This document shows, one piece after another, positions 99 through 54,790 of a stretch of DNA of 64,000 nt; positions within the stretch are counted from its first letter, which is position 1; every line of letters starts with the position of its first letter. The notes below the pieces were generated by a model. That model did no database searches and was not told the DNA's origin. It saw only the letters and a program-made list of their open reading frames with translations. Made by a program: the position numbers and the translations under genes. Location of the stretch: assembly GCA_964016885.1 (NCBI GenBank), contig OZ024743.1:51274001-51338000 (forward strand). The letters run 5' to 3'. This stretch comes from Eledone cirrhosa (lineage: Eukaryota).

Positions 99-767
99 TA
101 TAATAGTAAATATAAGTATGTACACGTACATACATACATGCATTATAATAAATGTTCGGTAAATCCATACGTACATATATATATGTGTGCATGTATGTAT
201 ATATATATATATATATACATACTACTGTACGTCTGTATGCATGTATGTATGTATGTGTACATACTTATATTTAAGTAACAGCCGTACTAAGAGTGGGAAA
301 TGAAATTTTGTTTCATTTTTTCCGTTTATCGTTTTCCGTGCACCCGGCCGATTAACCCACTCGATATGCAAATTGGGCTACTCAGCCATTAATATACATA
401 AGGTAAGTATATACGTTAACAATCTGGCAGGAAGGTATACGTTGCTGACGATAGCTAATAAGCTTGAAACTAGTACAGCGTTCCTTTGTCAGTGTTGAAC
501 AAACGAGCAACGATGGTTGCTAGACACTACGGCTTAATACGGGATGTTTGTTTACAAACACACCGAGCATTATAATAAATGTTCGGTAAATCCATACGTA
601 CATATATATATATATGTGTGCATGTATGTATATATATATATACATACTACTGTACGTCTGTATGCATGTATGTATGTATGTGTACATACTTATATTTAAG
701 TAACAGCCGTACTAAGAGTGGGAAATGAAATTTCGTTTCATTTTTTCCGTTTATAATAGTAAATATA
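99..767 (+). mobile_element. Retrozyme-like non-coding element, ~1.4 monomers of ~427 bp, with hammerhead ribozyme
   Basis: Direct repeat 140-329 = 567-754; short inverted segment at ~107-143; TATAATAGTAAATATA on both flanks (99-114, 752-767) as candidate TSD; hammerhead at 439-481; octamer at 366-373. Confidence 0.75.
439..481 (+). ncRNA. Type I hammerhead ribozyme motif
   Basis: acgttg-CTGACGA-t-agc-taataa-gct-t-GAAA-ctag-TA-cagcgt; stem I acgttg/cagcgt pairs, palindromic stem III CTAG, GUA cleavage triplet; U.U mismatch at base of stem II. Confidence 0.8.
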
Positions 768-925
768 TTTTAGTATAATAATATAATTTAGAAAATATAA
801 TAGTAAATATATTTTAGTATAATAATATATTTTAGAAAATATAATAGTAAATATCTTTTAGTATAATAATAATATATTTTAGTATAATAATAATATATTT
901 TAGAAAATATAATAGTAAATATAGA
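755..925. repeat. AT-rich degenerate minisatellite
   Basis: Repeated TATAATAGTAAATATATTTTAG / TTTTAGAAAATATAATAG blocks. Confidence 0.7.
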
Positions 926-1274
926 AATGTAAAATAAGTTTTAAACAATCAATAAACAGAAGAAAAGGGGGTAGGATGAGAAGAAGATTTTCTTAGAAAA
1001 TGTTTTCTTTTAATAGTGTTTATGACAATATGTGAGTGACCTAGTTTAAAGGTGGTAGTGACATTTGTATTGGCTGGCTGCTTTAAGATATCTCTTCTAT
1101 TTGATTGAAAATTGAAATGGATGGTGTCATCATCAAAGGTATGGATATTCTACTAGATAAATATCATGGCAGAGCTTCGAATTCACCTCTCCCCCAACAT
1201 TTGTGATTGTTCAATTGAGAAATGTAAGCTCTTCAATTTTCTAGTCTCTCCTTTTCGTAGTTCATTTAGCGAGT

Positions 1275-1952
1275 GAGGGACTTAGTGTTTACAACAGACA
1301 CTCTGTCACGTCTCCTAGTAAGGATATAATCTATCTGGCTGGCGTGTTCCCCTGATCTATAGGTGATCAAGTGATTGTCTTGTTTTTTGAAGTTTGTGTT
1401 ACAAATAGTTAAGTTATTAGCATCACAGAATTCCAGGATCCTGAAGCTGCTTTCCTCATTTCTAGTACCAAACCCATAGCCTCCATGGATTCCGTCATAG
1501 CCATCACATGACCACTTAAGTCGCCAGCAATAATTATGTAGTCACTGTCGGCTATTTGGGAGGTAGTGTGCATTAGCGACTCATAGAACATGTCTTTTAT
1601 AACGTCTGGTGGACCAGATTGGAGCACATAAGCGGATATTATTGTCACAGTTGTTCTATTTAGAACTAGTCTTATTTTAATTATTCTGTCGTTCACTCTA
1701 TTTACGGCAATTACCTTATCTACCCATTTTTCTGCTAACATAATTCCTACTCCACCCAGCCCATTGTCATTTCCCATCCAGAAAAGTTTATAGCATCATT
1801 TTTTACCCACAATGAATCTAGCAGACCCACCTCTCCACCTAGTCTCTTGAACACAACAAACATCACCTTCCTTACGTTCAAGCATCTCTACAACCTCATT
1901 TGAGCAACCTTTCAATGTGCCTACATTCATGGTACCAACTCTGAAGTTTTGG
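1275..1952 (-). mobile_element. RTE-clade LINE fragment, APE endonuclease (disrupted)
   Basis: FRVGTMNVGTL, DVCCVQETRWRG, GVGIMLAEKW, IIAGDLSGHV and SQIDYILTR motifs with frameshifts. Confidence 0.88.
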
Positions 1953-3871
1953 ATGTCGCCCACCTGCACGAATGCACTCTCTCTCCCCACTGGCCGTTGT
2001 GGTGGCGTGCACGGGTGCCGCCACTCGTATCTGAATACTGCTCTGTGTGGCACCGATTCCTCGACCTGTCCCACCCGAGGGGACATGTTGTACCAGAACA
2101 CTGCCTCCATTGGTGAGATATGGCCCCGCTCCACCATTGCCTTGATCGTCCGGTGGTGTCGCTCCACAATTCCATTCCTGCTCGGCCTGTGCGCTGCTCT
2201 GAAGAAACGGTCCACCTTCCATCCATCGAGCATCTCCCTCAGCGCCTCCGAGCGGAACGCTGCACTGTTGTCCATCAGCAGTTCGTCCACAGGGCCCCGC
2301 TCCAAGAACACCTGTCTCAACGTCCGCATGATTTCCTCGGACGTTCCAGTCTTCATCTCCCTCCATATCGCCATACGTCCTGGTCCACAGTCGACTATCG
2401 AGAGGTACGTTCACTGTCGGTAGTGCGTTACATCCACCACCAATCGCTACCAGTCGCGATCCACCGGGAGGCTTCCCGTTTCGTGCACTCCTGGCTAGGA
2501 ACAGGCTCCTATCCACTCCCATGTGGTGCATGTCATGCAACCCTTTCAGATCCGACTTGGTCAGCCGACACACGGCAGCTATCTCATCTTCTACCTCCTC
2601 TGGCGCTTCCATCCAGGCTTTCTTCAACCTAGTTAAGACGTCCGCCCTATTTTTCTCTGAGGGCACGAAAACTACGCTCAGCCTCAGGTCGAACTCGGTG
2701 GCCAGCCCTCCTAAAGTTCCCAGGCGGCGCTTTATCAGCATCTCCGCCGCCCCTCTCGTTCGCACTCTCTTCTCACTGGTGAGCACTGATCTCACCCATC
2801 CGAGTACAGTAGCCGAGTCGGTGCGTATCTCGATGGTGCACAGTCCCCACCTCAGGGCGAGGTTCACCCCTCTCAACATTGCGTCCAGTTCGGCCACATT
2901 GATATGGTTGCAGTCGTCCTTCTTCCTAAGCCAGGCTGCATCCTCGACCTCAACACCTCCTATCTCCAATGTGACACCCAGCGCTATGCTGCTGGCATCG
3001 CACCATATGGTCCCGCTCTGTGATTTGGGAACATACCAGCATCCCTGCACTGGGTCGTCGGCCTTCACCCTCCCCACGATCTCCTGCATCATGGCCACCG
3101 TCCTCTCTCCCACTCTGTCACTCCTCCCGCTCGTCTCTTGACATAGCTGCATGCCGTCCGGAGCCACCCAGCAATCGGGTAGTGACCCACCAACTTTCCA
3201 CACACCGAGAAAAGCTCCCGCCTACTCATACTTGGGCCCAGTTCTGGAACTTCATTTCCCCTCTGGAATACCAAGACGCCCGTCCTGTCTCGCCGTAGCC
3301 TAAGTCCCAGCGCGATTCCTCCCTCCATAGCTTCTGACGGCTTCGCAGCCAGTCCATACCCCTGTAAATGGCTCGTGACCTCCGCCGCCGACACCACAGA
3401 CTTGTCCACTAGGATGTCGTCAATATAAGAGTTAGTGGCCCTCTTCATCTTGTCGGCCTTTCCCAGAATAGTCTTGAGGACCGCCGCCATGATCTTCGGT
3501 GCGGAGCTCAGCCCGAAACCGAGCCTGGTCACTGTGACGCCTCCTAGACGGCCAATTGCGTCCATGCCCATAACCACGCTGATCCCATCCACCACGCTGT
3601 CTACTACGATGGCAGAAAGCCTTATTTTCCTTCCCCGTACCGCTATTTCCATCTTGCGACCTCAGCATTCAATTTTCCTGCCGTCGACTGCCCTTACGCT
3701 GCTCTTCTCTCTCCACCTCTGCGCCACCCCCGCAGTCACCAGTGTCGTCGTACAGCCCGTGTCCACGAGGGCTCGCTGTGGCTTTCCCCTCAAGAAGACT
3801 TCCACCACGGGCAGCGCCTCTACTCGTAAGGGGCAACTACCGGCGCAGTAGTTCCCCTTGGATCGTTTCCC
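1953..3871 (-). pseudogene. pol: Gypsy pol (PR-RT-RH-IN), disrupted
   Basis: Entered by a -1 frameshift; in-frame TGA in protease (~3662-3664), further frameshifts, and protease fused directly to RT motif RLGFGL at ~3530. Confidence 0.85.
3812..3871 (-). promoter_or_regulatory. -1 programmed ribosomal frameshift signal (slippery site plus pseudoknot)
   Basis: G GGA AAC at 3871-3865 in gag frame, then stem aagggg-aactac/gtagtt-g-cccctt whose loop gcgcc can pair with downstream ggcgc; the -1 frame reads into ALVDTG. Confidence 0.8.
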
Positions 3872-4581
3872 TGGTCGCAGTTAATAGCGATGTGGCCTGG
3901 TCGCTTACACCGGTAGCATATTATTTCCGGCCTTGACTCTCTGCAGTCTCTAGCCATGTGCGGGCCCTGGCACCGAAAACAGCAACCTCTAAACGTTCGC
4001 GGGCGACCGCGTGCCGTGGTTGCCTCCCTTTCACCATTTCGCTGCCAGCTGTCTTGAGCCTCTGTAGTTGCTATCGCCGTAACACTCTTCTTGGCATCTT
4101 CTGCTATGATCCGGGCTTGTTCCACCAGTGAACGCATTTCCATTTCTTTGTAACCCGGGACTTGCTGCAGTTTCACCGCTATGTCGTCTGGAAATCCATT
4201 TATGAACGCCAACCGCACCGTGCGTTCGCATTCCACCTGATATCCAGCCAACATGGCCAATCGCCGTATTTCCGCTGCGAAAATGTCAACGCGTTCACTG
4301 TTCCATCTAATTCTTGCCAGCTTAGCAAAAGCGACTAACGGTCGCTCTGCGAACGCTTCCATCATGCGCCTCTCAATCTTTTGCGCATCTCTTTGGCTGT
4401 GTTCGTCCAACTCAAGGAAGAGTACCAACGCGTCCCCCTCGAGGTACAGTGCCATGAGACCAGCCACATCTTCTATCTTCTGCAAGCTTGCGACCAGCCG
4501 GACTTTTCGCAGCCAAGCGACAACATCACCTTCCCCAGTAAATGCCCTGATAGCTTCGCTTGTTCGTAGTCTTGTCACCAT
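3820..4581 (-). CDS. gag: Gypsy Gag, 253 aa, open frame
   Basis: ATG-started ORF with CFRCQGPHMARDC and CYRCKRPGHIAINC zinc knuckles. Confidence 0.88.
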   Translation of the reverse strand: MVTRLRTSEAIRAFTGEGDVVAWLRKVRLVASLQKIEDVAGLMALYLEGDALVLFLELDEHSQRDAQKIERRMMEAFAERPLVAFAKLARIRWNSERVDIFAAEIRRLAMLAGYQVECERTVRLAFINGFPDDIAVKLQQVPGYKEMEMRSLVEQARIIAEDAKKSVTAIATTEAQDSWQRNGEREATTARGRPRTFRGCCFRCQGPHMARDCRESRPEIICYRCKRPGHIAINCDQGNDPRGTTAPVVAPYE

Positions 4582-4697
4582 CTTCTAATTTGTCTTGCGG
4601 TATGTGATAAAAAAAAAAAACAACAGACTCCTCTCTGTTTTTCCAGTAGCTTTTTTTTTTTTTTTTTTTTTTTTTCAATCAGATCTCAGTTTCCAGT

Positions 4698-4709
4698 GCC
4701 GAAATAGCT
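4698..4709 (-). promoter_or_regulatory. Candidate primer-binding site complementary to tRNA-Phe nt 1-12
   Basis: AGCTATTTCGGC abuts the LTR end CCACA; its complement GCCGAAATAGCT is the 5' end of metazoan cytosolic tRNA-Phe(GAA). Confidence 0.7.
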
Positions 4710-4963
4710 TGTGGTTAGAAAAATCTATCTCACTTACCGCTTTTCATAGGCGCCGCTAAATCCCACTGCTGGTTTCTCCTCTTCCACGTGCGTCCAACTC
4801 CTTAACACCGGGAGCTACCAAAACTCGCGTTCACATCGTTGCTGGTCACCACTAGAGAGAGACCCATCTGCTGGCCCTTCCGGTCGAGCATCCTTCTGGC
4901 CAAGCACCCTTCCGGTCGAGCACTCCCCCGCTTTCGGCCACCGCACGCCACACCATACCCACA
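4710..4963 (-). repeat. Gypsy 5' LTR, 254 bp
   Basis: TGTGG...CCACA terminal inverted repeats upstream of gag; LINE coding sequence resumes at ~4964. Confidence 0.8.
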
Positions 4964-7183
4964 AATAGTGTGTCTGTAATGATGATGGTGCACTTACCCT
5001 CACTGATACTGATAAGGTAGCTTGGAAGTGTCACTACGAGAGACTACTAAATCAGGAGAATAAATGGGAGAAAGATAGTCTGCCCCAAATCGATCCAATA
5101 GAGGGACCAGCGGTGCAAGTTAACAGTAGTATAAGTAAGGCAATCAAAGATATGAAGACAGGCAAGGCAGCTGGGCCTTCGGAGATAAATGCTGAGATGT
5201 TGAAAGCATCTGGAATGGTGGGACATACTATGGTCACCCAGATAGTAAACCAAGTAATACAGAATGGGGTAATTATATAAAAAAATACCAAATGACTGGC
5301 GTAGCAGCATCATTGTTAACTGCTACAAGGGTAAAGGAGACACTCTAGATAGAGGAAACTATACAGGCATTAAGTTAGTAGACCAGGTCATGAAGGTCAC
5401 AGAAAGAGTTCTGGCACCACTAATTAGTGACCGAATTGATCTAGATGAAATGCAGTTTGCGTTTATGCCAGGTAAAAGTACCACAGATGCTCTTTTTCTT
5501 GTACAGCTCCTACAGGAGAAGTATCTAGCTAAAAGTAAACCTCTCTACTTAGCTTTTGTTGACTTGGAGAAAGCCTTTGTCAGAGTCCCCCACTCCATTA
5601 TCTGGTGGGCTCTTACAAAACTAGGTGTAGATGAATGGCTTGTGAGAGCTATACAAGCCATGTATAAATAAACAGTCAGCAAGGTTAGAATTAACATTGA
5701 ATATAGTGAAGAATTTAGCGTAAAAGTAGGTGTTCATCAAGGCTCCGTCCTTAGCCCCCTTCCTGTTTATTATTGCCCTTCAGGCCATAACAGAGGAGTT
5801 TAAGACTGGCTGCCCATGGAAACTTCTATATGCAGATGATCTGACTCTCATAGCTGAATCTATGGTTGAACTAGAGAAGAAACTCCAGCATGGCCTAGAA
5901 TCAAAAGGCCTTAAAGTTAACTTGTCTAAGACTAAAGTTCTAGTATGTAGAAAGGAAAATAGGGCACAGGTGCCCTCTGGGAAATAGCCATGCTCAGTGT
6001 GTAGGAAAGGAGTAGGTGGAAATTCCATTATATGTCCCAAATGCAAACTATGGGTACATAAAAGATGTAGTAGGATCACAGGTAAGCTATCTAAGAATGT
6101 AGATTTTATATGTGGCCGATGCTCAGGTGCAATAAGTAGCAAGTGCCCACAGGATACTAGCTCCTCCTACTGCCCAGATGGTTCTATAGAAATAGTGGAC
6201 ACTTTCCGTTACCTGGGTGGCAAAATCAGCAGTGGTGGAAGGTGCTCTGAAAGTACAGTAGCCAGAGTTAGAATGGGATGGAAAAAGTTCAGAGAGCTTA
6301 TACCACTATTGGCCACTAAAGGTTTCTCTCTAAAAATGAAAGGCAGATTGTATGATGCTTGTATACGAACAGCAATGTTACATGGCAGTGAGACATGAGC
6401 ATTGTGTGCAGAGGATCTGCGCAGATTAGAAAGGAATAAAGCATGCATACTCCGTTGGATGTGTAATAGTAATATACATGAACGGCAAAACATAAATGAA
6501 CTAAGTGAGAAATTAGGAATAAGAGGGATCAGATGCTGTTTACTTGAGAGAAGACTATGTTGGTATGGTCACGTAATGCGCATAAAAGACGACAGCTGTA
6601 TAAAAAAAGTGCAGGGCAATCAAAATTGATGGAAGTTACGGAGTAGGCAGACCCAGAAAAACCTGGAACGACATGATAAAATCCGACCTTGCACACATAC
6701 ACCTCTCTAGGACAACGTCACTGGATCGAGATCTTTGGCACCACGCAGTAATACAGAAGACACGCCTTCCCTACGTCCAAAGTTAACCTACAGTCAGTAG
6801 GCCCCTCCTAACCAAATAGACCCCCCAACCCACTACTCTACTCCATCCTCCCACTCCCACCAACACCACCCTCTCTCTGTAAAGTTATGTTGGTACCACA
6901 ACATCCAGTCCAAACTAATGAGGTTGTGTAGGTGTCACGACAAAATAACACACAGTCCACGCTGTAATGTGGCCATGTAGGTAACACGGTGAAAACCTCC
7001 CAGTCCACACTGTAAATGTGGTTGGTGTTAGGAAGGGCATCCAGCCGTAGAAAACCTGCTAGATACAGTTCTACATGAGCAAGACACGGTCACTCGATCA
7101 ATCTTACCTCAAGTGGAATAATTCCCGTCTAACCCATGTTAGCGTGGAAGATAGACATTAAACGATGACGATGGTGATGATGA
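4964..7183 (+). mobile_element. RTE-clade LINE: RT, Cys-rich insert, C-terminus and 3' UTR (degenerate)
   Basis: MQFAFMPGKSTTDA, FVDLEKAF, LLYADDL, RTAMLHGSET motifs; 3' UTR gttaggaagggcatccagccgtag and (GAT)n tail. Confidence 0.93.
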
Positions 7184-7189
7184 CACTCT

Positions 7190-7520
7190 CACGCACACCT
7201 GTCTATCCTCATATATGTATTTGTACGTGTGCAATTGTCTGTGTGCTCACTTATATACAAAATGTGACCTCGTCGTTGTCGTGGTTTACTATAGTTGACT
7301 AAAGAAAATATTGTTATGTCAGTCAACACACATACACATTATGTGTATATGTGTGTGTGTTTAATTCTCTGAGGCCTAACGTACATAACAAACACATACA
7401 CACACTCATACAAAATGTGATGTCGTGGTAGTGGTTTACTATAGTCGACTATAAAAATATTATTAGAGAATGTAGAGGAACAGACAGACAGAGAGACAAA
7501 GAATTTTATATATATAGAGA
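7190..7520 (-). mobile_element. Helitron-related fragment, head-to-head with the 7629 copy
   Basis: Reverse complement of 7480-7520 matches the Helitron 5' end TCTCTATATATATAAAATTCTTTGTCTCTCTGTCTGTC; 7335-7425 is inverted-homologous to 7840-7945. Confidence 0.6.
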
Positions 7521-7628
7521 TAGTGAACAATTCATGAAAGGAGGAGAGGGAGCTGTATCAGATAATATTGTAAAACAGATACAAGAAATCCCTGCTCATT
7601 GGCTCTTCAAAGGGGTTGCGGATTACAA

Positions 7629-8357
7629 TCTCTCTGTATATAAAATTCTTTGTCTCTCCGTCTGTCTTTTCCTTATGCATTCTCAAACGGCTGGACCAAA
7701 TCAAATCAAATTTTACACGGTAATAGAAGTAGATCTTGGGATTAATATGTAATTTTTATTTTCATTTGGATTAAAACAATATAACATTTTATCTAAAATA
7801 ATAAACTATCGAATATATGTAAACAGACATTTTATAACATGACGTCACATTTTGTATGAGTATGTATGTGTTTGCGCGTTCATTACATACACATAAATAT
7901 TTAATCAGATACAGAGAATTAAACACGCACACACACACATACATATGTGTGTGAGTGTATGTGAGGTTGAATTTAAGAGGCTTCAGTTACCAGTCAAACT
8001 AAGTTTTTCTATTTCAATTAACAAATCTCAGGGTCAATCACTCAAGGTAGTTAGACTTGATCTCTCTACTACGTTTCTCTCATGGTCAACTCTATGTTGG
8101 TTGCTCACGAGTTGGAAGCAACAATTTATTCATTTGGACACCAACAAAGGATTACACAATGGATATTGTCTACCCTGAGGTGCTTCAAGATTCAGATTTT
8201 CATTTCTAAATTCTATTATCATTACAATTTTGATATTTCTTCTATAAAATGTAGATATTTTGAAATAATTATGAGAAAAAATATATATCTCTATATTTAG
8301 TTTACTAATCTTAATAAGAACAGCAGTAACCCGGGCAACACCGGGTCATTCAGCTAG
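7629..8357 (+). mobile_element. Non-autonomous Helitron with PIF1 helicase remnant
   Basis: 5' A|TC and 3' CTAG|T termini, subterminal hairpin acccgg-gcaaca-ccgggt (8329-8346), helicase motifs FKRLQLPVKLSFSISINKSQGQSL and SHGQLYVGCSRV. Confidence 0.88.
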
Positions 8358-8440
8358 TTCAATATGATCTACCTAATACTTTGTTTTTTTCTATTTCATG
8401 AAAGAATATATTGTTTTCAAAACTTCTCATTCTCCTTTAG

Positions 8441-8602
8441 TTGTACTTAATGAAGATGACTTTATAAGCTTGATGTGTCAGTTGTGTGATGAACATAAAC
8501 TTCGCGTCAATCTGAGAAAAAGTGCCAAAAGTCATATGCTAACTGGGTTGGCTGGTCTCACTGGAGGAATTGTATTTGGACCTCTTATTGGTTTATTTAT
8601 TG
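8441..8602 (+). CDS. C19orf12: C19orf12/nazo-like protein, internal coding exon
   Basis: Acceptor ctttag| and donor |gtaagt; DDFISLMCQLCDEHKLRVNLRKSAKSHMLTGLAGLTGGIVFGPLIGLFIG resembles the C19orf12 N-terminus and glycine-zipper segment. Phase-1 start, so the ATG exon is upstream and was not located. Confidence 0.8.
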
Positions 8603-8609
8603 GTAAGTT

Positions 8610-9947
8610 ATCATCATCATCATCAATATCACCGTTTTACGTCCATTCTTCCACACTAGCATAGGTTAGACGGGTTGTCCTGTTGTGGGCAGTGCCCAGT
8701 CGGCTGACCTTGTCTTGCTCATACGGGAACTGATTTTGGCTTGATTTTTACAGCTGGATGCCCTTCCTAACACCAACCTCACAGTGAGTGCTGGGTGCTT
8801 TTTTCCATGGCGTCTACACGTCCACTTTACAGTGTAGGCTGAGTACTTTTTTGTCGTAGCACCTCCACGACCACTTTGTAGTGGGAGCATAGTCTATATG
8901 CTTCAGCTTGTATCTGTGGGAAGTTGGGTCTTCTGTATTACTGTGTGACACCAGAGGTCACGGTCCTGTGTCATCGCCTTTGAGCGATGCAATTGGGTAT
9001 GGTCGGCTTTTATCACCTCATCCCAGGTCTTCTTGGGTCTCCCCACTTCACGGCTTCTAGTGCTTTGCACCTTTTTATGCAGCTGTCATCCTTCATACGC
9101 ATCACATGTCCATACCAATGCAACCTCCTCTCTTGCACAGCATGAATCCTCTTATGCTCAGTCTCTCTCTCAATTCGTTTATGCTTTGCTGTTCGCGTAT
9201 ATTACTATTACACATCCATCGGAGTATGCAAGGTTCGTTTCTTTCTAATCTACGCAAGTCTTCTAGGCACAGCGCCCAGGTCTCATTACCATGTAACATT
9301 GGTGTTCGTATGCACGCATCATACAGTCTGCCTTTCATTTTGAGGCAAAAGACTTTTGCAGCAACTCCCTGAACTTCTTCCATCCTGTTCTTACCCTGGC
9401 TACTGTACTTTCCGAACACCCATCTCCGCTGCTAATTCGGTCACCTAGGTAGAAAAAGCTGTCTACTGTTTCTACAGAGCCCTCCCGGAATTTGGTAGTG
9501 CTTGTTTGCTGCATGTAAAGCCTACATTCTCAGCTAAGCTTCCCGAGATCCCACTACATCTCGTGTACCCATTGTTTGAATTTGAGGCAGAGGATGGAGT
9601 TCCTACCTACATACTGAGCAAGGCCATTTCCCTGAGGGAATCTGGGCTCTGTTTTCTCATCTACCTACGAGGACCTTAGTCTTTGTCAGGTTCACTTTGA
9701 GACCCTTTTTTCTAGTCCCTGCTTCCATGTTTGGAATTTCTTCTCTAGTTCCACCATAGATTCAGCTATAAGTGTGAGACCATCTGCATACAGGAGTTCC
9801 CATGGGCATCCGGTCTTACTCCTCTGTTATTGCTTACAATACTATAATGAACAGGAGAGGGCTAAGAACAGAGCCCTGGTGGACACCGACCTGTATGCTA
9901 AATTCCTCGCTATAGTCATTGTTAACCCTAACTTTGCTGACTGCTCC
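8610..9947 (-). mobile_element. RTE LINE, 5'-truncated, intronic
   Basis: (CAT)n tail at 8610, same 3' UTR and KGRLYDACIRT..LHG.ETW motifs as 4964-7183. Confidence 0.9.
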
Positions 9948-10392
9948 CAAATGCAGAAAATATTTTATTTTGTTTAGTTTTTCTGTTCATAATGAAAAGT
10001 CTGTTGACATGATTACATGGCAGAGAGAGAGAGAATGTAAGGGAAAGACGGGAGCTGGTTTGTATGTATTTTTATAGCTCACACCTATCCAGATTTAGCT
10101 GGCCTCCTATGAGGTTACATCTTATAGGTTTCATGAAAGTTTCAATGATAGGGGCCCCAGTTGTATCATCAAGACTCCTTGTCAAGTACCAGTCTGCTAC
10201 AAGATTGCACATCATACATTTCTCAGGTATTATAATGATAGAGATCCCATTTCCCAACCCCTGGACAGGAAATTAGTCTATTGCAGGAGTTAAACCCCCA
10301 GCTAATGCTGGTACTCATAATCTTCCTAAATACTGTTAAACTAGGTGGCTTAGAATATCGAAATAATGGTATATTTTTATTTTATTTTTTAG

Positions 10393-10592
10393 GTGGAGTA
10401 ACTTATGCAATGTCTGGAAACTCTAAACCTGCTTCACAAATCATTAAAGAAATGCCTAGAGAGAAAAGGAAGTTATTAGTCAAAAGAGTTGAACAAACAT
10501 TAGAAGATCCTGAGTCTTTGGTATTCAAACGGAATGCACTTACAAAGGGTTTGAATCACTTTATAACCACAGATCTTAATATGAATCTATAA
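10393..10592 (+). CDS. C19orf12: C19orf12/nazo-like protein, last coding exon
   Basis: Acceptor ttttttag| in matching phase 1; GGVTYAMSGNSKPASQIIKEMPREKRKLL resembles MTSGQFKPVPQILMELP; stop at 10590-10592, AATAAA at 10662. Confidence 0.8.
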
Positions 10593-10666
10593 AACAAAGG
10601 AAGGAGTGCCGGACGTCTGTTTTATATCTTTTTATCTCGTAAAATAAGTTGGATTACTTTGAATAA

Positions 10667-11005
10667 ATAATTGTTTATACTTTTGGCACAAGGCCAGCAA
10701 TTATCTCAGTGTATTACTGGTATTTTATTGACCCCGTAAGGATGAAAGGCAAAGTTAACCTCGGCGGGATTTGAACTCAGAATGACAAGGGCCGTAACTC
10801 TATGCGTCAAAGCATAGCGTCCGACCCTCTACCGATAATTGTTTCTACTTTAGGCACAAGGCCAGCAATTACCCAGTGCATTACTGGTACTTTATTTTAT
10901 CGACCCCGTAAGGATGAAAGGCAAAGTAAACCTCGGCGGGATTTGAACTCAGACTGTAAAGGGACGTAACTATGCTGGAAAGCATGGTGTCCGACTCTCT
11001 ACCGA
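10667..11005 (-). mobile_element. Tandem dimer of tRNA-derived SINE
   Basis: Two ~169 bp copies with B-box GAGTTCAAATCCC on the minus strand and the ggcacaaggccagc / aaggatgaaaggcaaag body. Confidence 0.85.
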
Positions 11006-11162
11006 TAATGAATGAATATTATATAATTTATCTACTAAATTTTGTAACACAGGATTAAACATAAATAATTTAATGTATTGCTTATTTCAAGATTCACTTC
11101 TTTTAAAAGTTTCAAATTTCAACTTCTGGTATATCGCCACCACCACTAACACTTCAACTATA

Positions 11163-11652
11163 TATACATATGTGGATGTACATTTTTAACTTAATTGTTT
11201 AAGCGTCAGTCATACAAAAGTGAGTTACAAACGAAACGAAATTTAATTTCGTTTCGTTATTTGTTTTTATCGTCTCCGTTGAACCGGTACGTACTCACGC
11301 TCTATGCAAATTAGTCTGCCCACTACTAATTTTCATAGAAAAAGCATATAACGATATGTGCTTTTACGATTCTCTAGAAAGGCCGGAAGATAGGTAAATA
11401 TTGCTGATGAGATGTAACAACATCGAAACTAGTCCAATATTCCTTGTCTGGAGAATAGAGGAAAGGTGTTTCCTCAAAAACCAGTATGACTCTAAAAACC
11501 GGTTTGTCTGTGTGTTTACATACAGAATAGCTGGACACTCACAGTAAAGTGACCAGTGAAAAACTCGGTACATCTACATATGTACACGTGTGTGTATTCA
11601 TATGCATACTATTTCAGTATACATATGTGGATGTACATTTTTAACTTAATTG

Positions 11653-13576: not shown

Positions 13577-14896
13577 TCATGATGATTTTTTTCTTGTGTG
13601 GACAATGTAATGTTTATTTAAGTCACCTTTATACCAGAAACCTTTACCACAGATTTCACATATGTTTGTTTTGTTGTCTGTATGAACTATACTATGTTTC
13701 TTCAAGTCACTAACACACAAATAAGTTTTACAACAGATCTCACATTGGAATGGTCTGTCATTGGTGTGAAGCTTTTTATGTCTATTTCTATTAGATTTTA
13801 ATGAGAACGCTTTACCACATACATCACAGTTATATGGTTTCTCTTTACTATGAACCAGTTTATGGCACTTTAAGTAATCTATGCATGTGAATGTTCTACC
13901 GCAGCTTTCACAGCAGTAAGGTCTCTCTCCTGTATGAATGGTTTTATGCCTCTTTAAATCTCGACTTTTTACAAATACTTTATCACAAATATTGCATCGT
14001 TTTGGACTAGAGATGGTTGTATGGAGTAGTTTATGTTTTATTAAATCAGCATTATTCCAGAATGTATTACCACAAAAGTTGCAGTAGTAAGGTTTTACTC
14101 CAGAGTGAACCATTTTATGCTTGGTTAAATAATATTTTTTTGAGAATGTTTTGTCACAAATTTCACATTTGTACATTTTATCTCCAGTATGAACAAACAT
14201 ATGATGCTTTAATTCCCCATTAGTTGTAAAAGTTTTACCACAAATTTCACAGTGGCATGGTTTATCTCCTGTGTGAATCATTTTATGTCTCTTTAGGACA
14301 TTATTTCTATTAAAAGTTTTACCACAAACCTCACAACTGAATGGTCTCTCTACCGTATGAACAAGTTGATGGTCCTTTAAAATACTGTTGTATGCAAATA
14401 TTTTACCACAGGTATCACAACGATATGGACTTTCTCCCGTGTGCATCATTTCATGCTTCTTTAAGTAACTTTTATTAAAGAATGTTTTACCACAAATTTT
14501 ACAGCAAAATGGCTTCTCATCAGTGTGAATCCTTTTATGACTAGTTAAGTCATTTTTTCTTGAGAATACTTCATCACAAATGTCACAGTGGAATGGTTTC
14601 TCTCCAGTATGAAGCACCATATGTTGTTTTAATACAACATTAGTTGAGAAAGATTTACCACAAATTTCACAGCAGAATGGTTTCTCTCCGGTATGAATCA
14701 TTTTATGATTCTTTAGGTGAGCATTTCTTTTAAAAGATTTACCACAAACCTCACAGCTGAATGGTCTCTCTGCTGAATGAATACGTTTATGTACTTTTAA
14801 ATAACTATTATACGAGAATGTCTTATCACATATATCGCAGCGATGTTGTTTTTCTTCAATATGTGCTGACTCTTCGTTGACTCTGTTGTCTTCCAT
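13577..14896 (-). CDS. Tandem C2H2 zinc-finger protein, 439 aa, 15 fingers
   Basis: Uninterrupted ORF with 15 CxxC-x12-HxxxH units and TGEKP-type linkers; candidate upstream acceptor tttcag| at 15127. Confidence 0.95.
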   Translation of the reverse strand: MEDNRVNEESAHIEEKQHRCDICDKTFSYNSYLKVHKRIHSAERPFSCEVCGKSFKRNAHLKNHKMIHTGEKPFCCEICGKSFSTNVVLKQHMVLHTGEKPFHCDICDEVFSRKNDLTSHKRIHTDEKPFCCKICGKTFFNKSYLKKHEMMHTGESPYRCDTCGKIFAYNSILKDHQLVHTVERPFSCEVCGKTFNRNNVLKRHKMIHTGDKPCHCEICGKTFTTNGELKHHMFVHTGDKMYKCEICDKTFSKKYYLTKHKMVHSGVKPYYCNFCGNTFWNNADLIKHKLLHTTISSPKRCNICDKVFVKSRDLKRHKTIHTGERPYCCESCGRTFTCIDYLKCHKLVHSKEKPYNCDVCGKAFSLKSNRNRHKKLHTNDRPFQCEICCKTYLCVSDLKKHSIVHTDNKTNICEICGKGFWYKGDLNKHYIVHTRKKSS

Positions 14897-14923
14897 TCTG
14901 CAGGAATGTTTACAACTACAAAA

Positions 14924-15018
14924 CTTTTAAAAAGTTACAATAGTAACTAACAGTTCCCAAAACATAAATCTTTTAAAAAGTTACAATAGTAACTAACAGT
15001 TCCCAAAACATAAATCTT
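14924..15018. repeat. ~46 bp tandem duplication upstream of the ZNF start codon
   Basis: cttttaaaaagttacaatagtaactaacagttcccaaaacataaat occurs twice. Confidence 0.9.
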
Positions 15019-16880: not shown

Positions 16881-18530
16881 TATTAAAATAACAGATTAAA
16901 GTTTAAGCAAAGAATCGCTGCTTTCACCCATAACGGGATCTTCTGAAATAAAAAAAATCAATCTGTGAATGCAGAAGTAAATATTTTGAAAAACGTTGCG
17001 ACTGAAGGAAAACAGGAAGACGATACTTTGGTTTTGTGAAGTCGTTCCCTGGCAATGAACGGAAAAAGCGAAGATAATACGTTGTTATGTGGAGCGCGGA
17101 GAACAATTACACGCAAAGACAAAACCACGTTTATGGTATAAATTAAGTCGTAGACTAATATTCTATTTGGGAAAACGAATGATTCTCGGCTTCAGAGTTA
17201 AGAATAATATAAATAACTTAGAACGAAAATGACAGAGATTATGAATCAATAATAATTGTGGACAACTTCCGTTACCTGGGTGACAAAATCAGCAGTGGGG
17301 GAGGGTGCTCTGAAAGTACAGTAGCTAGAGTCAGAACTGGGTGGAAAAAGTTCAGAGAGCTCATACCACTATTAGCCGCTAAAGGGTTCTCCCTAAAAAT
17401 GAAAGGCAGGTTGTACGATGCCTGCATACGAACAGCAATGTTGCACGGCAGTGAGACCTGGGCATTGTGTGCAGAGGATATATGCAGACTAGAGAGAAAC
17501 GAAGCTTGCATGCTCCGCTGGATGTGTAATAGTAATATACGTGAACGGCAAAGCATAAACGAACTAAGGAAAAAATTAGAAATAAGAGGGATCAGATGTT
17601 GTTTACTCGAGAGAAGGCTACGTTGGTATGGTCACGTGATGCGCATGAAGGACGATAGCTGTATAACAAAGTGCAGGGCAATAAAGATAGATGGTAGCCA
17701 CGGAATAGGCAGACCCAGAAAAACCTGGGACGAGCTGATAAATTCCGACCTCACACACTTACACCTCACCAAGACAATGTCACTGGACCGAGACCTTTGG
17801 CGGTACTCAGTAATGAAGACCCGCCTTACCTAAATACAAAGTAAAACCTACTACAGTCAGTAGGCATCTCTAACAAAATACACCCCCGTCCCACCACCCC
17901 CACCGCCCCTTTCAATGTAAAGTTATGTTGGTGCCACAACATCCAGGCCGAAACAAATGAGATCGTGTAGGTGTCACGTCAAAAAAACACACAGTTCACG
18001 CTGTAATGTGGCCGTGTAGGCAACACGGTAAAAACCTCCCAGCCCCACACTGTAAATGTGGTTGGTGTTAGGAAGGGCATCCAGCTGTAGAAAACCCGCC
18101 AGATAGTCCTATGCGAGCAAGATAACCACTCTTGCCTCAAGTGGGAAAACCCTCCGTCCAAACCCATGCAAGCATGGAACACGGACGTTAAATGATGATG
18201 ATGATGATGATGACACATCCATAAACGTACATACACGAAAACACTCGCCACGCATGCATATTGCCAGGGAACGTCTTCACGAACCAAAGTATCGTCTTCC
18301 TGTTTTCCTTCAGTTGCAACGTTTTTCAAAATATTTACTTCTGCGTTCACAGATTGATTTTTTTTAGTTTCAGAAGATCCCGTTATGGGTGAAAGCAGCG
18401 ATTCTTTGCTTAAATATTAATCTGTTATTTTAATAAATATTTGCTCTAGGGTTCTTATATATTTGATATATATTTATCCTTATCGAGCCCTCTTTGGATT
18501 TTAGTCTTCACATTTATTATTATTACTATA
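16881..18530 (+). mobile_element. Non-coding element with ~175 bp inverted arms and a unique 3' tail (Penelope-like architecture), interrupted by a LINE
   Basis: 16881-17056 is the reverse complement of 18260-18435; the tail 18436-18530 recurs at ~46236-46330; TA-repeat flanks. Confidence 0.65.
17257..18213 (+). mobile_element. RTE LINE 3' fragment, 191-codon open frame plus UTR
   Basis: FRYLGD, RTAMLHGSETW, RRLRWYGHVMR, GRPRKTW motifs; (GAT)n tail. Confidence 0.93.
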
Positions 18531-22060: not shown

Positions 22061-22431
22061 TAAAAGCAAATAATTGTTTCTACTTTATTTTTCTTAAGGA
22101 AATAATTGTTTCTACTTTTGGCGCAAGCCTTTCTGCGGTAAAGTTCTAGTTGGAAGGGACTTTAGGTAAACTGCGTCACTCATTAAGAGAGGATCAAATG
22201 CTGCTATAATTAAATCTTTTTTTTGTCGCACTGTAAAATTGAAACATTTTAAATATCAGAGTGTGTTCTATTATTATTTCTGGCAATATTATAACAATAT
22301 AACATCACAAATATAATGTCGTTGATAAACGTATATAAAAAAATACAACCAACTATCCAGAACCTTACCAAAACACGTGACGAGAAAAAGAAAAAAAAAC
22401 GAAAACGACCATCAAGTCCGTCACACACGAA

Positions 22432-24345
22432 CCGGGTGAGGAGTTTAGTCCGGTGCAACTGGGTGTCTGCGTGTCCGGTGGTTGTGAGGGAGCCTCTCAT
22501 GCAATCAGGCAGTTCTTCAGCAGCTGCCCATCGGTACCGACATCCAGACACCTCATTGTCAAGTTTGACATGAGGAATGCCTTTAACTCTTTACGCCGGG
22601 ATCATCTGCTCGAGGCCTGCCTCAGCCGAGCCCCTTCTGCCTACCCGCTGGCCTACCTGTCATATGGAGCCCCGAGCATGATCCTAGCTGCTGATACGGT
22701 CATACCCTCGGCTACTGGGGTCCAACAGGGCGACCCTTTGGGACCCCTCCTGTTCGCCCTTGGTATTGACCACATCGCCCAGAGTATCACGGCCCCTCTC
22801 AACGTTTGGTATCTGGATGATGCTACGTTGGGCAGGCTCGTATGGACGATCTGCCATGACCTTCAATCAGTGATTCCTGCCCTGGCGGGAATCAGCCTCC
22901 AGGTCAACTTGGCCAAGTCGGAGGTGGTGAACGTCAGCCTCGATGCTGCGAGCTTTGCAGCCTCCGTCTTGGACGTGCGGTCCATTCTCCGCCAGGTTCA
23001 AGTGACCCCCAAAGAGGATGTCCTCATCCTCGGGTCACCGATCCACCTGCTGGCCATCCGCTCCACCATCAGGTCCAGGCTTCAACAGCTCCAGACTCTC
23101 ACGAGCCGACTGGGCTTGATTGACGGCCACCCAGCTGTCTTTCTGCTGAGGAACTGCTTCGCCATGCCGAAGCTCCTCTATACACTCCGCAGCGCTCCAT
23201 GCTACACCCAGAAATCTCTCCTCGCTGACCTCGATACTTGTATCTGAGCAGCAGCCGAGGGGATATGCAACATCAAGTTTGATGACATAGGGTGGCAACA
23301 GGCCACTTTACCAGTCAGGTATGGCGGCCTAGGCCTCCTGTCCCCGATCTCACTAGCTTTGCCGGCGTATCTTTTGTCATTAACCTCGTGCCGCTTCCTC
23401 ATCAGCAGGGTTCTTCAAAACACAACAGAACCCTGTGTTCAGAGAACGTGAGGCTGCCTGTGAGACGTGGGACCGGCTGGGACTTAGCCCAGTAGACGTC
23501 CCTCCTCCTCCTACCCCTGTTGACGTCAAGTCCCCCCAACGCACTTGGGATGCCATCCAGTGCAGCCTGGTCTCAGACAGGCTCATGCGCCAGCACCACC
23601 TTGCTTGTTTTCGTGCGACCTCCAAACCCCACAGTGGTGCCTGGCTCCATGCCCTGCCCTCCTCCACTGGCACGCAGCTAGACAACCATAGCCTGCGAAT
23701 CGGCGTTTCCCTGAGGCTCCGCCTCCGGATCTGCCAGCCACACCAATGTCGCTGTGGATCCACCGTGGACTCTTTCGGCCTCCACCCGCTTTCCTGTCGC
23801 CACAGTGCCAGCCGCATTCCACGCCATACTGCCCTCAACGAGGTCATTAAGCACGGCTTGGATGCTGCAGGCTTCCCTTCCCAGCTCGAGCTGGTGGGAC
23901 TGGATCAAGGGGACGGCAAAAGGCCAGATGGCAATACCATCTTCCCGTTCCGCGGTGGCAAACCCTTCATCTGGGATGCCACTTTATGCAGCCACAACCT
24001 GGTGCAGTCTGCAACTGACCCAGGTTCTGCTGCACGTCGGGCTGAGGGGGCCAAACTCCTCAAATACCGGTCACTCTCCGACAGGTTTGCAGTCGTTCCC
24101 CTGGCAGTGGAAACTTCTGGTGTCCTCGGCCCCAGGGCTACTTCCTTACTCACCACCATAGGTGCTGAGCTGGCCAGCCGCAGGTGTGAGCCCCACGAGT
24201 TGGAGTGGCTTTGCAAGCGCGTCTCCCTTGCCGTCCTCCGGGGAAACGCCTTCTCCATTCTGTCCGCCGAGGCTGTGGGTGGGGCCCCATCGCGTACCAA
24301 TACATTAGTTAAATACCATTCTTTCATCTGATACAACACAATAAA
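22432..24345 (+). mobile_element. CRE-like non-LTR retrotransposon (RT plus RLE), 5'-truncated
   Basis: KFDMRNAFNSL, GVQQGDPLGPLLF, WYLDD; CRCG...HPLSC zinc knuckle, RHTALN, KRPDG, WDAT, PLAVETSG. One stop and a frameshift; GC-rich. Confidence 0.9.
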
Positions 24346-24399: not shown

Positions 24400-27115
24400 C
24401 ATTGGTCAACAGAACACTGAGGCAAGCCAAACATGTTCGCAACATTACCATGGCTGATGGCGAGGCTAAGGCTCTGAAATAACCAGGCACCCTCACAGGC
24501 ATCACCTGACACCTCAGTAAAGTGAGCCACCAGAAAAAGCAAGAACTTTGCTGTCAGTGACCCAACTCCACCAAATGTCTCAGGCTGGAAAAAAATAATT
24601 AGATAAATGCAGGTTTTTCCGAATTTTACTCCGTTCGGCAATGGAAGCAGTGACCTCCACATTTACCATGGCATCCATGATGTGGGAGGGAGCAAAAGAG
24701 TCACTGACTGGTGTCCCAGATGAGACACCTGCCTCTAACCCAGGGAGAAAGAGTAAAGATGTCTGGTTTCTTCCCACCAATTCTTGATAATCCAGCCGGC
24801 TCCAGAACTGAGGGGATATTTACCTCAGCCAGGGCCCATTTAATGATTAGGTTTAACTCTGTGTGGTGGGCAAAACAACCAGCATTCAGGCAGCAGGACA
24901 AACCATGGAGGCCTGTGGAGTCGAGGGACCTACCACAGTGATATCTCAGACCCCCACAGACATCAGCTCCCACTCAGAGCACAATGGAAATGCAGAGCCT
25001 GTCCTAACTGAGAAGACCACCAATGCTGGTCACAGGCAGAACATCAATCCAGTTCCCCTAGAAAATTAATCAGAATGATTAAAGAGAGAGTTAAGTTTCC
25101 CCTTGAACACAGATTGTCACATGCTCTCTGCTTTTGTCTATCCTCCTATCGGGAACTGACTAGCTCTCTCCACTAGTAAAGCTTCAACCATCTCCCTGAT
25201 GAAACTAGTCCATGTTGGAAAGGAGAGGATATCACCCACTAAAGGGGAGCAAGCATAGATGGAGGAAAGAAAGCAAGGTAGAGACAAAGATGTGCAGACC
25301 AAGATCTCCAAGCCATTTGGGCAAGGCAGCCTGGTCGTGGGACTCTGGAGAGAGTCGGACATTGACCAGACCCTTGGGCTCACTGAATATTAGTGATTGA
25401 CAATTCCTAAGTATAAAAAAAAAAAACATTGGTGTGGCTCAATGGCCTCGAGGTTAGCCAACTTAGATAGAAAGATGAACTCAAAGTCTTTGTTAGTAAT
25501 CGGGGCTCTACACAGATAAGGGAGAAACCACAATAAAGGGGAAGGACTGTATACAGGTCAACAGTCTTCTGGTGTGAAGCTGGATGGTTGAGAAAGAACT
25601 AGCATTTGGAACTGTTGACACGAAGGCTCCTACAACCCAGTTCCTCAATCGTCGTCTTCATGGCTGCAAGGACTTTATTTGGAGGACCACTCCAGCAAGC
25701 ATCATCCAGATACAAGACATTCAGATCCATGTCAGCTCCCATCTTGTTGACATCATCAATGCCCAGTGCGAAAAGAGCAGGTCCCCCTGTTGGACTCCTG
25801 AGGCAGATAGAATGAAATGGTCACCGAAGGAGAGGTAGGAGGGATCCCGATAGGCTTGTCAAGCTATATAGTAAAACCGAGGGCCCTCTTCTTTACTGAA
25901 TGGAGGATGACATCCCGACTAATGGAATTAAAAGCATTCCTGAGATCTAGCTGGAAGATAACCTTGGGAGTTTCAGAAGGCAAGTTGGTAAATACTCTGG
26001 TAGCATGAACAGCAGCCTTACAACCCAGCTTGGTACCCACTCTTAGCTGAATACGAGTAAATTTGGTGGACAGGCTGCCTGAAATCAAAGACAAACATAC
26101 TTTTGTAGTGTCTACCCAACTGCTATGGAGCGGAGATCACTGTTGTGCTTTGTAAAGCCAAACAGTTTAGTGCCAGAAAACAGGGGACGAATATAAGAGA
26201 GGACTTTCTCGGACGAGAACAAGTTGATGAAGTGGGTGAGGTTCTTGAAGAGACCAGCATCTCTGGCCGACATGGAGAAACCATCCTTGAGGTGCTGAAG
26301 TCGAAGTCCATCAATCCTAGCACCAGAACCCACCGAAAAGGATATAACCACCTTCCTGACATTAACGTGAAGACAGGTTGCAAATAACCTGGTGGATCGG
26401 GCCTGAAGATGTTTCACTCTCAGTTGGTTGAGTAAATCAGGAGTGTGCTGGGTGAGGGAGGACAGAGAAGAGAGGAGGCGAACAGCCCCTTTAATGTCAA
26501 ATTTGTTGAATTTGGCATTGACTGCCTTCTTTAAGTTCGGTGATCGTCCATTAATTGGAACTGAGTTGATCACCGACCTGAGATGAGTTGGGGTGGAATC
26601 AAACAACTTGAACTGCCGTATTAGGGAAGATGTGAGGGATCCGGTTTTCGCGTTTGTCAAGTGGAGAGAAACTAGAGCGAACAAAAAAAGTTTCTGCCAA
26701 TCCGAGATGTTGGATAAGCAGTTGTTCTTCACCAGCTTGGGGAGAGCATGAGTGAAACTAGTCCAAGCAGCCTTTTGGATCTATTTGATGAGTTTCAACT
26801 TAGACAAGTCTTGGAGGGATCAGAAGGGATCGACTGGTATGGGAGCAGAGAACACAGTTTGGTGGTGGATTGGCAGCATCAGAAGGGATCGACTGGTATG
26901 GGAGCAGAGAACACAGTTTGGTGGTGGATTGGCAGCATCAGAAGGGATCGACTGGTATGGGAGCAGAGAACACAGTTTGGTGGTGGATTGGCAGCATCAG
27001 ATAATAGGAGGGAGAGGATATTAGCTCTCCTGGAATGAGGTGGGCATACTGGGGAACGGGAGGATGAAAGATGATAGGATGTTACAAAATCCTTTAACCA
27101 TGCAGGTCTCCTGGT
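24400..27115 (-). mobile_element. Second, more degraded CRE-like non-LTR retrotransposon
   Basis: GIDGL-like, DLRSIAVG, QLDLRNAFNSISRD, GLHGLSC, KKPD, LIWD and WLFQSLSLAI..GN motifs across frames. Confidence 0.85.
26821..27000. repeat. 59 bp exact tandem triplication
   Basis: Units start at 26821, 26880 and 26939. Confidence 0.95.
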
Positions 27116-53456: not shown

Positions 53457-54790
53457 CATCATCATCATCATCAACGTTTTACGTCCATTCTTCCACGCTA
53501 GCATGGGTTAGACGGATTGTCCTGTTGTGGGTAGTGTCTGGTCGGCTCATACAGGAACTGATTTGGCTTGATTTCTACAGCTGGATGCCCTTCCTAACAC
53601 CAACCTCATTTACAGTGAGTGCTGGGTACTTTTTCGTGGCGCCTACACGTCCACTTTACAGTGTGGGCTGGGTGCTTTTTTGCCGTGGCACCTCCACGAC
53701 CACCTTGCAGTGGGAGGGTGTGGGGGCATATTGTCTATATGCTTCAGCTTGTACCCATGAGAGGTCGGGTACTCTGTATTACTGCGTGACGCCAGAGGTC
53801 ACGGTCGTGTGTCATCGCCTTTGAGAGGTGTAATTGGGTAAGGTCGGCTTTTATCACCTCATCCCAGGTCTTCTTGGGTCTCTCCACTCCGCGGTTTCCA
53901 TCGACTTCTATTGCTCTGCACCTTTTTATGCAGCTATCATCCTTCATACGCATCACATGTCCATACCAACGCAACCGCCTCTCCTGCACACAGCATTTGA
54001 TTCCTCTTATGCTCAGTCTCTCTCTCAATTAATTTATGCTTTGTCGTTCGCGTATATTACTATTACACATACATCGGAGCATGCAGGCTTCATTTCTCTC
54101 TAATCTATGTAAGTCTTCCACCTTCAGCGCCCAGGTCTCACTACCATGTAACATTGCTGTTCGGATACATGCATCATACAGTCTGCCTTTCATTTTGAGG
54201 GAGAAGCCTTTTGCAGCTAGCAGTGGTAGTAGTTCCCTGAACTTCTTCCATCCCGTTCTTACCCTAGTTATTGTACTTTCTGAACACCCACCTCCGCTGC
54301 TAATTCGGTTACCTAGGTAGCAGAAGCTGTCTACTGTCTCTACAGAGCCCACCCAGAGATTGGTGGTACTTGTTTCCTGTGGCTGTTTGTTGCTTGTTGT
54401 CCCAGTACAGCTGCTGCATGTGAAGCCTACATTCTTAATTAAGCTTCCTGAGATCCCGCTACATCTCTTGTGTACCCATTGTTTGCATTTGGAGCAGAGA
54501 ATGGAGTTCCTACCTACACTTTTCCTACATACTGAGCAAGGCCATTTCCCTGAGGGGATCTGGGTTCTGTCTTCTCGTCTACTTACAAGGACCTTAGTCT
54601 TTGAGACCCTTTCTTTCTAGTCCCTGCTTCCAAGTTTGGAATTTCTTCTCTAGTTCTACCTTAGATTCAGCTATAAGTGCGAGGTCATCAGCATACAGGA
54701 GTTCCCATGGGCATCCGGTCTTAAACTCCCCTGTTATTGCCTGCTAGACTATGATGAACAAAGAGAGGGCTAAGAACAGAGCCCTGGTGA
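53457..54790 (-). mobile_element. RTE LINE, 5'-truncated
   Basis: (CAT)n tail, LLYADDL and RTAMLHGSETW motifs; same subfamily as 8610-9947. Confidence 0.92.

Follow-up and report, generated by a model that had tools for sequence, protein, structure and literature searches.

Retrozymes of the cephalopod Eledone cirrhosa may have assembled a hybrid small nuclear RNA promoter ahead of their hammerhead ribozyme

Plant long terminal repeat (LTR) retrozymes are promoter-bearing. For animal retrozymes, which are reported to be very abundant circular RNAs, a review finds no apparent promoter in the part of its text available to us (PMC7761336). Promoters are known from other hammerhead-bearing repeats: according to the accessible portions of two reports, newt satellite 2 has an internal promoter of the small nuclear RNA (snRNA) type, used by RNA polymerase II (Pol II) (PMC2220036, PMC6765202), and the schistosome repeats have an RNA polymerase III (Pol III) promoter, with the upstream unit driving the next and single copies unable to propagate (PMC6765202, PMC2220036). 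Penelope-like elements, in the available part of their description, insert with an inverted 5'-truncated copy and a one-sided tail of 30-40 bases (10.1101/2021.04.23.441226). Here we analyse two hammerhead-bearing elements, A and B, in a stretch of 64,000 nucleotides of the Eledone cirrhosa genome (assembly GCA_964016885.1, contig OZ024743.1, positions 51,274,001 to 51,338,000 of the forward strand), hereafter the window, which an earlier note made from the sequence alone had likened to newt satellite 2. The newt promoter reportedly consists of an octamer and a proximal sequence element (PSE), a description said to come from Coats, Zhang and Epstein in 1994 and Cremisi et al. in 1992, and Ferbeyre et al. 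in 1998 are said to have described the schistosome Sm-alpha promoter with its A and B boxes. By sequence, A and B are high-copy non-LTR retrozymes whose expression, cleavage and circularisation are only presumed, and we think it rather probable that their units carry a working, built-in snRNA-class promoter ahead of the ribozyme. That this promoter would be a hybrid assembled by cephalopod retrozymes, joining a U6-class POU box to a core and spacing of the U1/U2 class in a way seen in no host gene, is a serious possibility that falls somewhat short of being probable.

The alignment of the two elements shows homology by common descent and no chance likeness. It is collinear and scores 129, far above the 25.0 ± 3.6 of 300 dinucleotide shuffles (maximum 38); the upstream part alone scores 79 (shuffles 20.7 ± 3.3), and downstream of the ribozyme the likeness in sequence alone is not significant, 31 of 500 shuffles reaching its score. 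All motifs that the earlier note had listed are present in both, in the order it gave: TTTATCGT at 325 and 11266, the shared TATGCAAATT at 365 and 11303 with the octamer beginning at 366 and 11304, GGC.GGAAG at 426 and 11381, the hammerhead cores at 445 and 11404, the TTTA-loop hairpins at 545 and 11508, and TCGGTA.ATC at 583 and 11565, of which GGC.GGAAG and TCGGTA.ATC vary inside families and are not invariant. The tail hairpins differ, as had been seen, by a compensatory U-A to C-G change. In both hammerheads stem I has a GG-UA bulge and stem III is a palindrome of 2 bp (GAAAC TA GTH). On Rfam HH9 neither reaches the cut-off of 52 bits: A scores 19.7 bits (E 0.007, in a 121-base search) and B 39.5 bits (E 1.6e-6). 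In the window, both elements are partial tandems containing a single ribozyme each (A at 140-754 plus the inverted 111-139, B at 11162-11652), probably end products, and no open reading frame (ORF) of 150 amino acids runs across either. The features of non-LTR retrozymes are found together here: one type I hammerhead per unit, short dispersed low-GC tandems, no LTR, primer-binding site (PBS) or ORF, and a stable, self-paired monomer.

In the 3.0 Gb of genome searched, the pattern joining the promoter box to CTGAHGA matched 34,082 times, compared with 26 times in a control, and among the matches listed (100 of 34,082) we found the lineages A1, A2, A3 and B together with two more, F and G. Copies of element A stand at 97-98% identity (1,477 candidates, 40 scored), and a third relative, E, was met by chance next to an A copy (2,693 candidates, about 89% identity). 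With a generic hammerhead pattern 13,043 matches were obtained, and 40 with its reversed control; among those listed (100 of 13,043) were B and a family with a minimal hammerhead, D, and this search shows that the 16 candidates obtained by a DNA search with B are an undercount. Nearly all genome matches to Rfam HH9 belong to a further family, C. Copies stand in short tandem arrays of 416-470-base units, often with an inverted 5'-truncated array, and their ends adjoin (TA)n. Where both ends of an inverted locus could be called, one outer end is tailed and the other short at all 12 B loci and at 5 of the 6 A loci, some of the A short-end calls being false matches on a palindrome. By sequence this insertion shape is the one described for Penelope-like elements, which likely spread A and B. 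Several further Penelope-type families with minimal hammerheads, D among them and one a 78-base tandem, carry no promoter box, and one minimal-hammerhead element ends in GAAACGAAAT ahead of (TA)n, a word also present in the B tail hairpin and a lead to the partner element.

For comparison with the host, U1, U2, U4, U6, U6atac and RNase MRP loci were collected, one per distinct upstream type, giving 5 Pol III and 11 Pol II promoters; the U6 loci kept were the top-scoring matches, MRP was the sole match, and snRNA matches that had no upstream elements were set aside as probable retrocopies (11 of 11 further U6 and 5 of 6 U6atac, all without the box). All five Pol III genes have TATG[CG][AT]AAT[TG]AG at -77 to -79, followed 47-49 bases on by a TATA box at -30. 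The Pol II snRNA genes have AATTA near -90, a TCAGT-type core near -57, a TATA-like box 24-28 bases past the core (about -30) and the 3' box AAAAWCAGACT. A distal TTAYCTCCCTT lies near -260 in 12 of the 16 promoters (score above 8), U6atac and MRP reaching only 4-5 bits. Of 40 U1/U2 loci, 2 have an exact octamer in the 1,000 bases ahead of the gene, near -400 in both. No new gene class emerged from a scan of 140 kb around the snRNA genes. In a U6 array, a repeat resembling a short interspersed nuclear element (SINE) is inserted between box/TATA and gene, with the TATA region duplicated, and a tailed family B unit, probably a chance insertion, stands about 900 bases ahead of the first gene in a U1 array.

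The Pol III box recurs in the retrozymes. It is present in 5/5 host type-3 promoters (U6, U6atac, MRP) and 0/11 U1/U2/U4 promoters, and on the model built from it A scores 15.9 and B and E 20.2 bits, compared with 12.8-22.4 for the host genes themselves (leave-one-out), at most 3.0 for host Pol II promoters, -0.9 for family C and 2.5 at best for family D, where 0/7 copies carry the box; among 384,000 background positions, 15.9 bits is attained by the three real U6 promoters alone. Within it, TATGCAAAT is the longest invariant run of the A/B/E alignment and exceeds any in the ribozyme core, and the elements show at position 9 the same T/G variation as the host Pol III genes. Between five lineages the box is identical at 10-12 of 12 positions and the upstream flanks at only 42-61 of 100. 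What follows the box resembles the other host class. YCASY stands 17 bases from the box start in all lineages, and the best offset of a core+TATA model of the Pol II genes is exactly +17 in 9 of 9 lineage representatives, with scores of 16.2 bits in A, 11.7 in E, 10.4 in F, 10.3 in C, 8.0 in G and 5.3 in B (range in host Pol II genes 8.3-18.1; at +17 the host Pol III genes score below zero); the match to host core and TATA is strong in A and E and weak in B. In A, B, E and F a TATA-like box begins 43 or 44 bases from the box start, 4-5 bases nearer than the 47-49 of host type-3 genes, and its spacing from the core is that of the host Pol II snRNA genes. The predicted starts (near 439 in A and 11376 in B), about 74 bases past the box, fall in the 5' strand of hammerhead stem I.

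Other host elements are missing from the units. AATTA was not found 32-34 bases upstream of the core, the two-block score of 2.5-4.6 bits being matched at more than 500 background positions; the distal TTAYCTCCCTT reaches at best 4.3 bits in A, 3.9 in B and 1.7 in E; and no good host-like 3' box was found in A or B. A 70-base Pol II matrix and a two-block AATTA+TCAGT model had been tried and gave no match to A, B, C or E. Of the comparison with newt satellite 2, what holds is the snRNA-class promoter signature ahead of a hammerhead; the octamer is not distal, standing just 17 bases before a PSE-like core, and the family is no satellite but a dispersed, Penelope-type retrozyme.

Family C, with a unit of 316 bases, has no box, but holds TTATCTCCCC, AATT, TCAG[CT] and TATAAG at host U1/U2 spacing, with a three-block score of 18.8 bits that only 15 of 384,000 background positions equal, some of them real U1/U2 genes. 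Its distal-like motif lies in ribozyme stem I and a diverged copy fits worse; a full U1/U2 promoter fails on the two-block model (1.5-11.9 bits, at other places). A switch of family C to a full U1/U2-type layout is, on its sequence, only suggestive.

The RNA itself is conserved in fold. The minimum free energies of circular monomers give z-scores of -8.1 for A, -13.5 and -10.9 for B and -11.4 for a partial E (30 shuffles each), with one topology common to all; for E, of which 30 loci yielded no full tandem monomer, two halves were folded, leaving aside the simple-repeat middle. Across seven helices, 21 of 43 pairs are changed on both sides between A, B and E, hammerhead stems I and II included, and 127 of 129 cells pair. 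In the 22 variable columns 64 of 66 cells pair, compared with 45.0 ± 3.0 after shuffling and a count that none of 20,000 shuffles reaches; the helices were registered by hand from predicted folds and the shuffle ignores relatedness, so that this is support and not a p-value. The proposal of the earlier note that this is a structurally selected hammerhead family is borne out by these compensatory changes in three lineages, and it is the whole retrozyme unit that is under structural selection.

If the promoter works as its layout suggests, a POU factor together with SNAPc/TBP would occupy the box, the core and the TATA-like site, RNA would start about 74 bases past the box within stem I, and the polymerase would read through the tandem units. 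Paired hammerheads, with their short palindromic stem III, would cut out monomers, to be circularised by ligation, and a Penelope enzyme would copy more than one unit into (TA)n sites; it is by being copied as more than one unit that the promoter upstream of the start would be carried along.

As to which polymerase would be used, the balance of the sequence evidence tilts slightly to Pol II, because the core and its spacing follow U1/U2/U4 and a T5-T6 run lies 37-49 bases before the box in every monomer (14/14 A, 35/35 B, 23 of the 35 B monomers holding another T5), past which Pol III would need to read; the absent 3' box was weighed together with these as tipping the choice. The fuller statement, a built-in promoter read by Pol II, we hold only tentatively. 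Its counterpart, a sub-case of the same promoter account that we find rather unlikely, has Pol III read the promoter as U6-type (type 3), with hairpin and T5-T6 run as a leaky terminator and circles arising from rare read-through. The box and its position-9 variation, host Pol III features both, favour such a polymerase, as do the recurrence of hairpin and T run before the box in A, B, E and F, with long insertion ends no more than 8 bases after the run, and the formation of multimers from a Pol III promoter in schistosome repeats, as told in the accessible text (PMC6765202, PMC2220036). The core, however, matches Pol II genes, and the TATA box lies 4-5 bases closer than in 5/5 host genes; the part of an insect study at hand describes tight PSE-TATA spacing, varying by only 1-2 bases in type-3 promoters, with few bases deciding the polymerase (PMC1761439). 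The second T5 in most B monomers also speaks against Pol III, and the A end, lying past the T6 run, is not explained simply by Pol III termination. Alternatively, the T run may have a role in priming at (TA)n targets. Contigs of four sequencing runs of unrecorded kind were compared with 141-760: one covers the unit at all unmasked places and three mostly 414-586, and, since the promoter at their loose ends belongs to a sister subfamily, the uncovered part says nothing on the start site.

A number of observations weigh against a built-in promoter of either kind. As far as the sequences compared go, no host gene combines the boxes in this way; the elements lack both the AATTA and the distal motif that Pol II genes have, and B fits core and TATA only weakly. 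The core+TATA model was the third Pol II model tried, with TATA offsets set by hand; the training sets were small (5 and 11); the lineages are related and hence not independent; and F and G, found via the box itself, are no test of its conservation. A variant of the box unseen in host promoters, TATGCATAT, occurs in 7 of 14 A monomers. The insertion tails of about 56-70 bases are longer than the Penelope-like 30-40, and no partner element was met with, no search aimed at one having been made. Finally, in the predicted folds of A, B, E and F the box serves as the 5' arm of a hairpin, its position 9 changes together with its partner in F, and the related family C does without it.

These last points are shared with an explanation that we regard as unlikely, namely that the box is kept as an RNA element, be it a hairpin arm or a site for a protein or reverse transcriptase (RT) on the circle, and that transcription is by read-through from outside promoters, a route proposed for retrozymes at large. 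The box is paired in all four predicted folds, the whole unit is under structural selection (z -8 to -13.5), family C has spread without a box, and retrozymes seem promoterless to the reviewers, in the part of their text at hand (PMC7761336). Pairing leaves unexplained, however, why across A, B and E the box arm is unchanged while its hairpin partner changes at 3 of 6 pairs, where the other helices show two-sided changes at 21 of 43 (the chance of six invariant columns being about 0.014), and why the invariant box C is mismatched in B and F, where C18-A19 is also kept in unpaired loops. Nor does it account for the fixed TATA offset and the near-identity with the host -78 box. A double constraint on the box, as DNA site and as RNA stem, fits best.

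That the promoter boxes are a dead relic of one ancestral capture, for instance of an snRNA-gene flank, is improbable. Common ancestry around the box is evident, the C-E, F-E, F-A and F-B alignments beating 500/500 shuffles, but the box is far more conserved than its flanks, a contrast that requires continuing selection. Least credible of all is the layout of the earlier note, in which the octamer would serve as distal enhancer and the PSE would follow the ribozyme, at 11539: the 235 bases between them resemble the spacing from distal sequence element (DSE) to start in vertebrates, but the PSE candidate scores -0.2 bits on the host Pol II and -0.6 on the host Pol III model, is altered in subfamily B2 and has no counterpart in A or E, and the host distal motif is no octamer, none of the 16 host promoters having an exact one at -330 to -100.

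The features of both elements are collected in Table 1.

Table 1. Features of elements A and B, in window positions
Feature	Position	Strand	Basis
Inverted 5'-truncated piece of element A, stopping at the family's short end	111..139	-	reverse complement is short-end sequence of unit
Element A (family A1), single full unit of 427 bases	140..566	+	140-329 recurs at 567-754; other copies 97-98% identical
Element A, second unit, partial, ending in tail (long end, ...TTTAT)	567..754	+	identical end in 18 distinct A ends
Stem GAGTGGG/CCCACTC around tail hairpin (297-319) and T6 run (316-321), element A	291..363	+	compensatory changes vs B and E; T run in 14/14 A monomers
POU/octamer-type box TATGCAAATTGG of A, like -78 box of host U6, U6atac and MRP; also 5' arm of RNA hairpin	365..376	+	15.9 bits
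TCAGC of A, resembling TCAGT core at -57 of host U1/U2/U4	382..386	+	core+TATA model 16.2 bits, background fraction 4e-5
TATA-like box of A, box start +43; predicted start near 439	408..413	+	start predicted from host spacing
Type I hammerhead A: GG-UA bulge in stem I, U.U at stem II base, 2-bp palindromic stem III; predicted cut after A475 (GUA)	427..498	+	Rfam HH9 19.7 bits (below cut-off), sequence, covariation
TTTA-loop hairpin of A	545..560	+	sequence, covariation
Element B: 457-base unit plus 36 repeated bases; short end adjoins (TA)n	11162..11652	+	self-repeat
Tail hairpin (11231-11257) and T5 run (11264-11268) of B	11231..11268	+	T5 in 35/35 B monomers
Box TATGCAAATTAG of B, same as box in one host U6 promoter	11303..11314	+	20.2 bits
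CCACT of B at core position, weak match	11320..11324	+	core+TATA 5.3 bits, background fraction 0.006, weakest lineage
TATA-like TATAAC of B, box start +44; predicted start near 11376	11347..11352	+	weak on host TATA model (4.8 bits)
Type I hammerhead B, 2-bp palindromic stem III; predicted cut after C11434 (GUC)	11386..11457	+	Rfam HH9 39.5 bits, E 1.6e-6, below cut-off 52
TTTA-loop hairpin of B	11508..11525	+	sequence, covariation
PSE candidate of the earlier note, rejected	11539..11552	+	-0.2 / -0.6 bits on host models

Around them, TATAATAGTAAATATA stands on both sides of element A (97-112 and 751-767), possibly as a target duplication, but the right flank is itself an AT-rich minisatellite built from these words. 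Just upstream of element B, 10667-11009 holds two tandem copies of a 172-base SINE-like repeat, which we take to resemble the tRNA-derived SINEs of octopuses. Elsewhere in the window, named by eye, are broken frames like LTR-retrotransposon gag, protease, RT/RNase H and integrase (1796-4584, minus strand) and fragments like RT and endonuclease frames of non-LTR retrotransposons (17222-17833, 22381-24331, 26112-26780 and 54029-54616). A 449-residue frame of tandem C2H2 zinc fingers (13577-14926, minus strand) contains the third ATGCAAAT of the window, at 14392.

The proposed cassette names bases and a predicted start, and suggests that newt satellite 2 is no exception. It also illustrates how a promoter situated upstream of the transcription start can be retained by a mobile element, through the copying of more than one unit at a time, and the comparison yields a first-pass map of U6-type and U1/U2-type promoters that is useful for guide-RNA expression in cephalopods. 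Were the hybrid reading true, a promoter of the external type, such as would be lost by a SINE when it retrotransposes, would travel within an RNA circle, tens of thousands of copies would be autonomous transcription units, and the lineages would form a natural mutagenesis series for polymerase choice at mollusc snRNA promoters.

The literature searched gave no account of cephalopod retrozymes or of such a promoter, and Repbase, Dfam, subscription journals and supplements may hold families; cephalopods go unmentioned in the main texts, as far as these were available, of the retrozyme papers (PMC7229834, PMC7761336, 10.64898/2026.07.22.740005), and the accessible part of the 2026 preprint mentions neither promoter, octamer nor octopus (10.64898/2026.07.22.740005). 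Nothing that bears on the question was met with in the consulted text of PMC10886601. Among described systems, and from those portions of the sources at hand, A and B are closest to the metazoan non-LTR retrozymes, with which they share short low-GC tandems, one type I hammerhead per unit, thousands of copies and the lack of an ORF (PMC7229834), strongly self-paired predicted circles and a link to Penelope-like elements (PMC7229834; 10.64898/2026.07.22.740005), and, at the base of stem II, the U.U of axolotl HHR_Amex2. They differ in their units, which at 422-469 bases are at or above the top of the 150-450-base range, and in holding a host snRNA-class promoter signature, of which retrozymes seem to harbour none according to the consulted text of the review (PMC7761336). 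With Penelope-like elements and their pseudo-LTRs, again from the available part of the source, they share partial tandems, microsatellite targets and hammerheads with a palindromic short stem III (10.1101/2021.04.23.441226), but they have no RT/endonuclease ORF, a longer tail, and a canonical rather than minimal hammerhead. Schistosome Sm-alpha, as far as its accessible description goes, likewise has promoter then hammerhead in tandem units, its promoter being SINE-like Pol III where A and B have the snRNA-class series of box, core and TATA. The vertebrate U1/U2 layout, a distal octamer with a PSE, is not seen in A or B, where the octamer is 17 bases from the core. Newt satellite 2, in what was available of its description, is like them a hammerhead tandem repeat with weak stem III and internal snRNA-type promoter; unlike it, A and B come from another phylum and have no distal element, and their octamer-type box, a copy of the host Pol III box, has a proximal position immediately ahead of the core. 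They are a known kind of element in which the promoter variant is new, with newt satellite 2 as its precedent.

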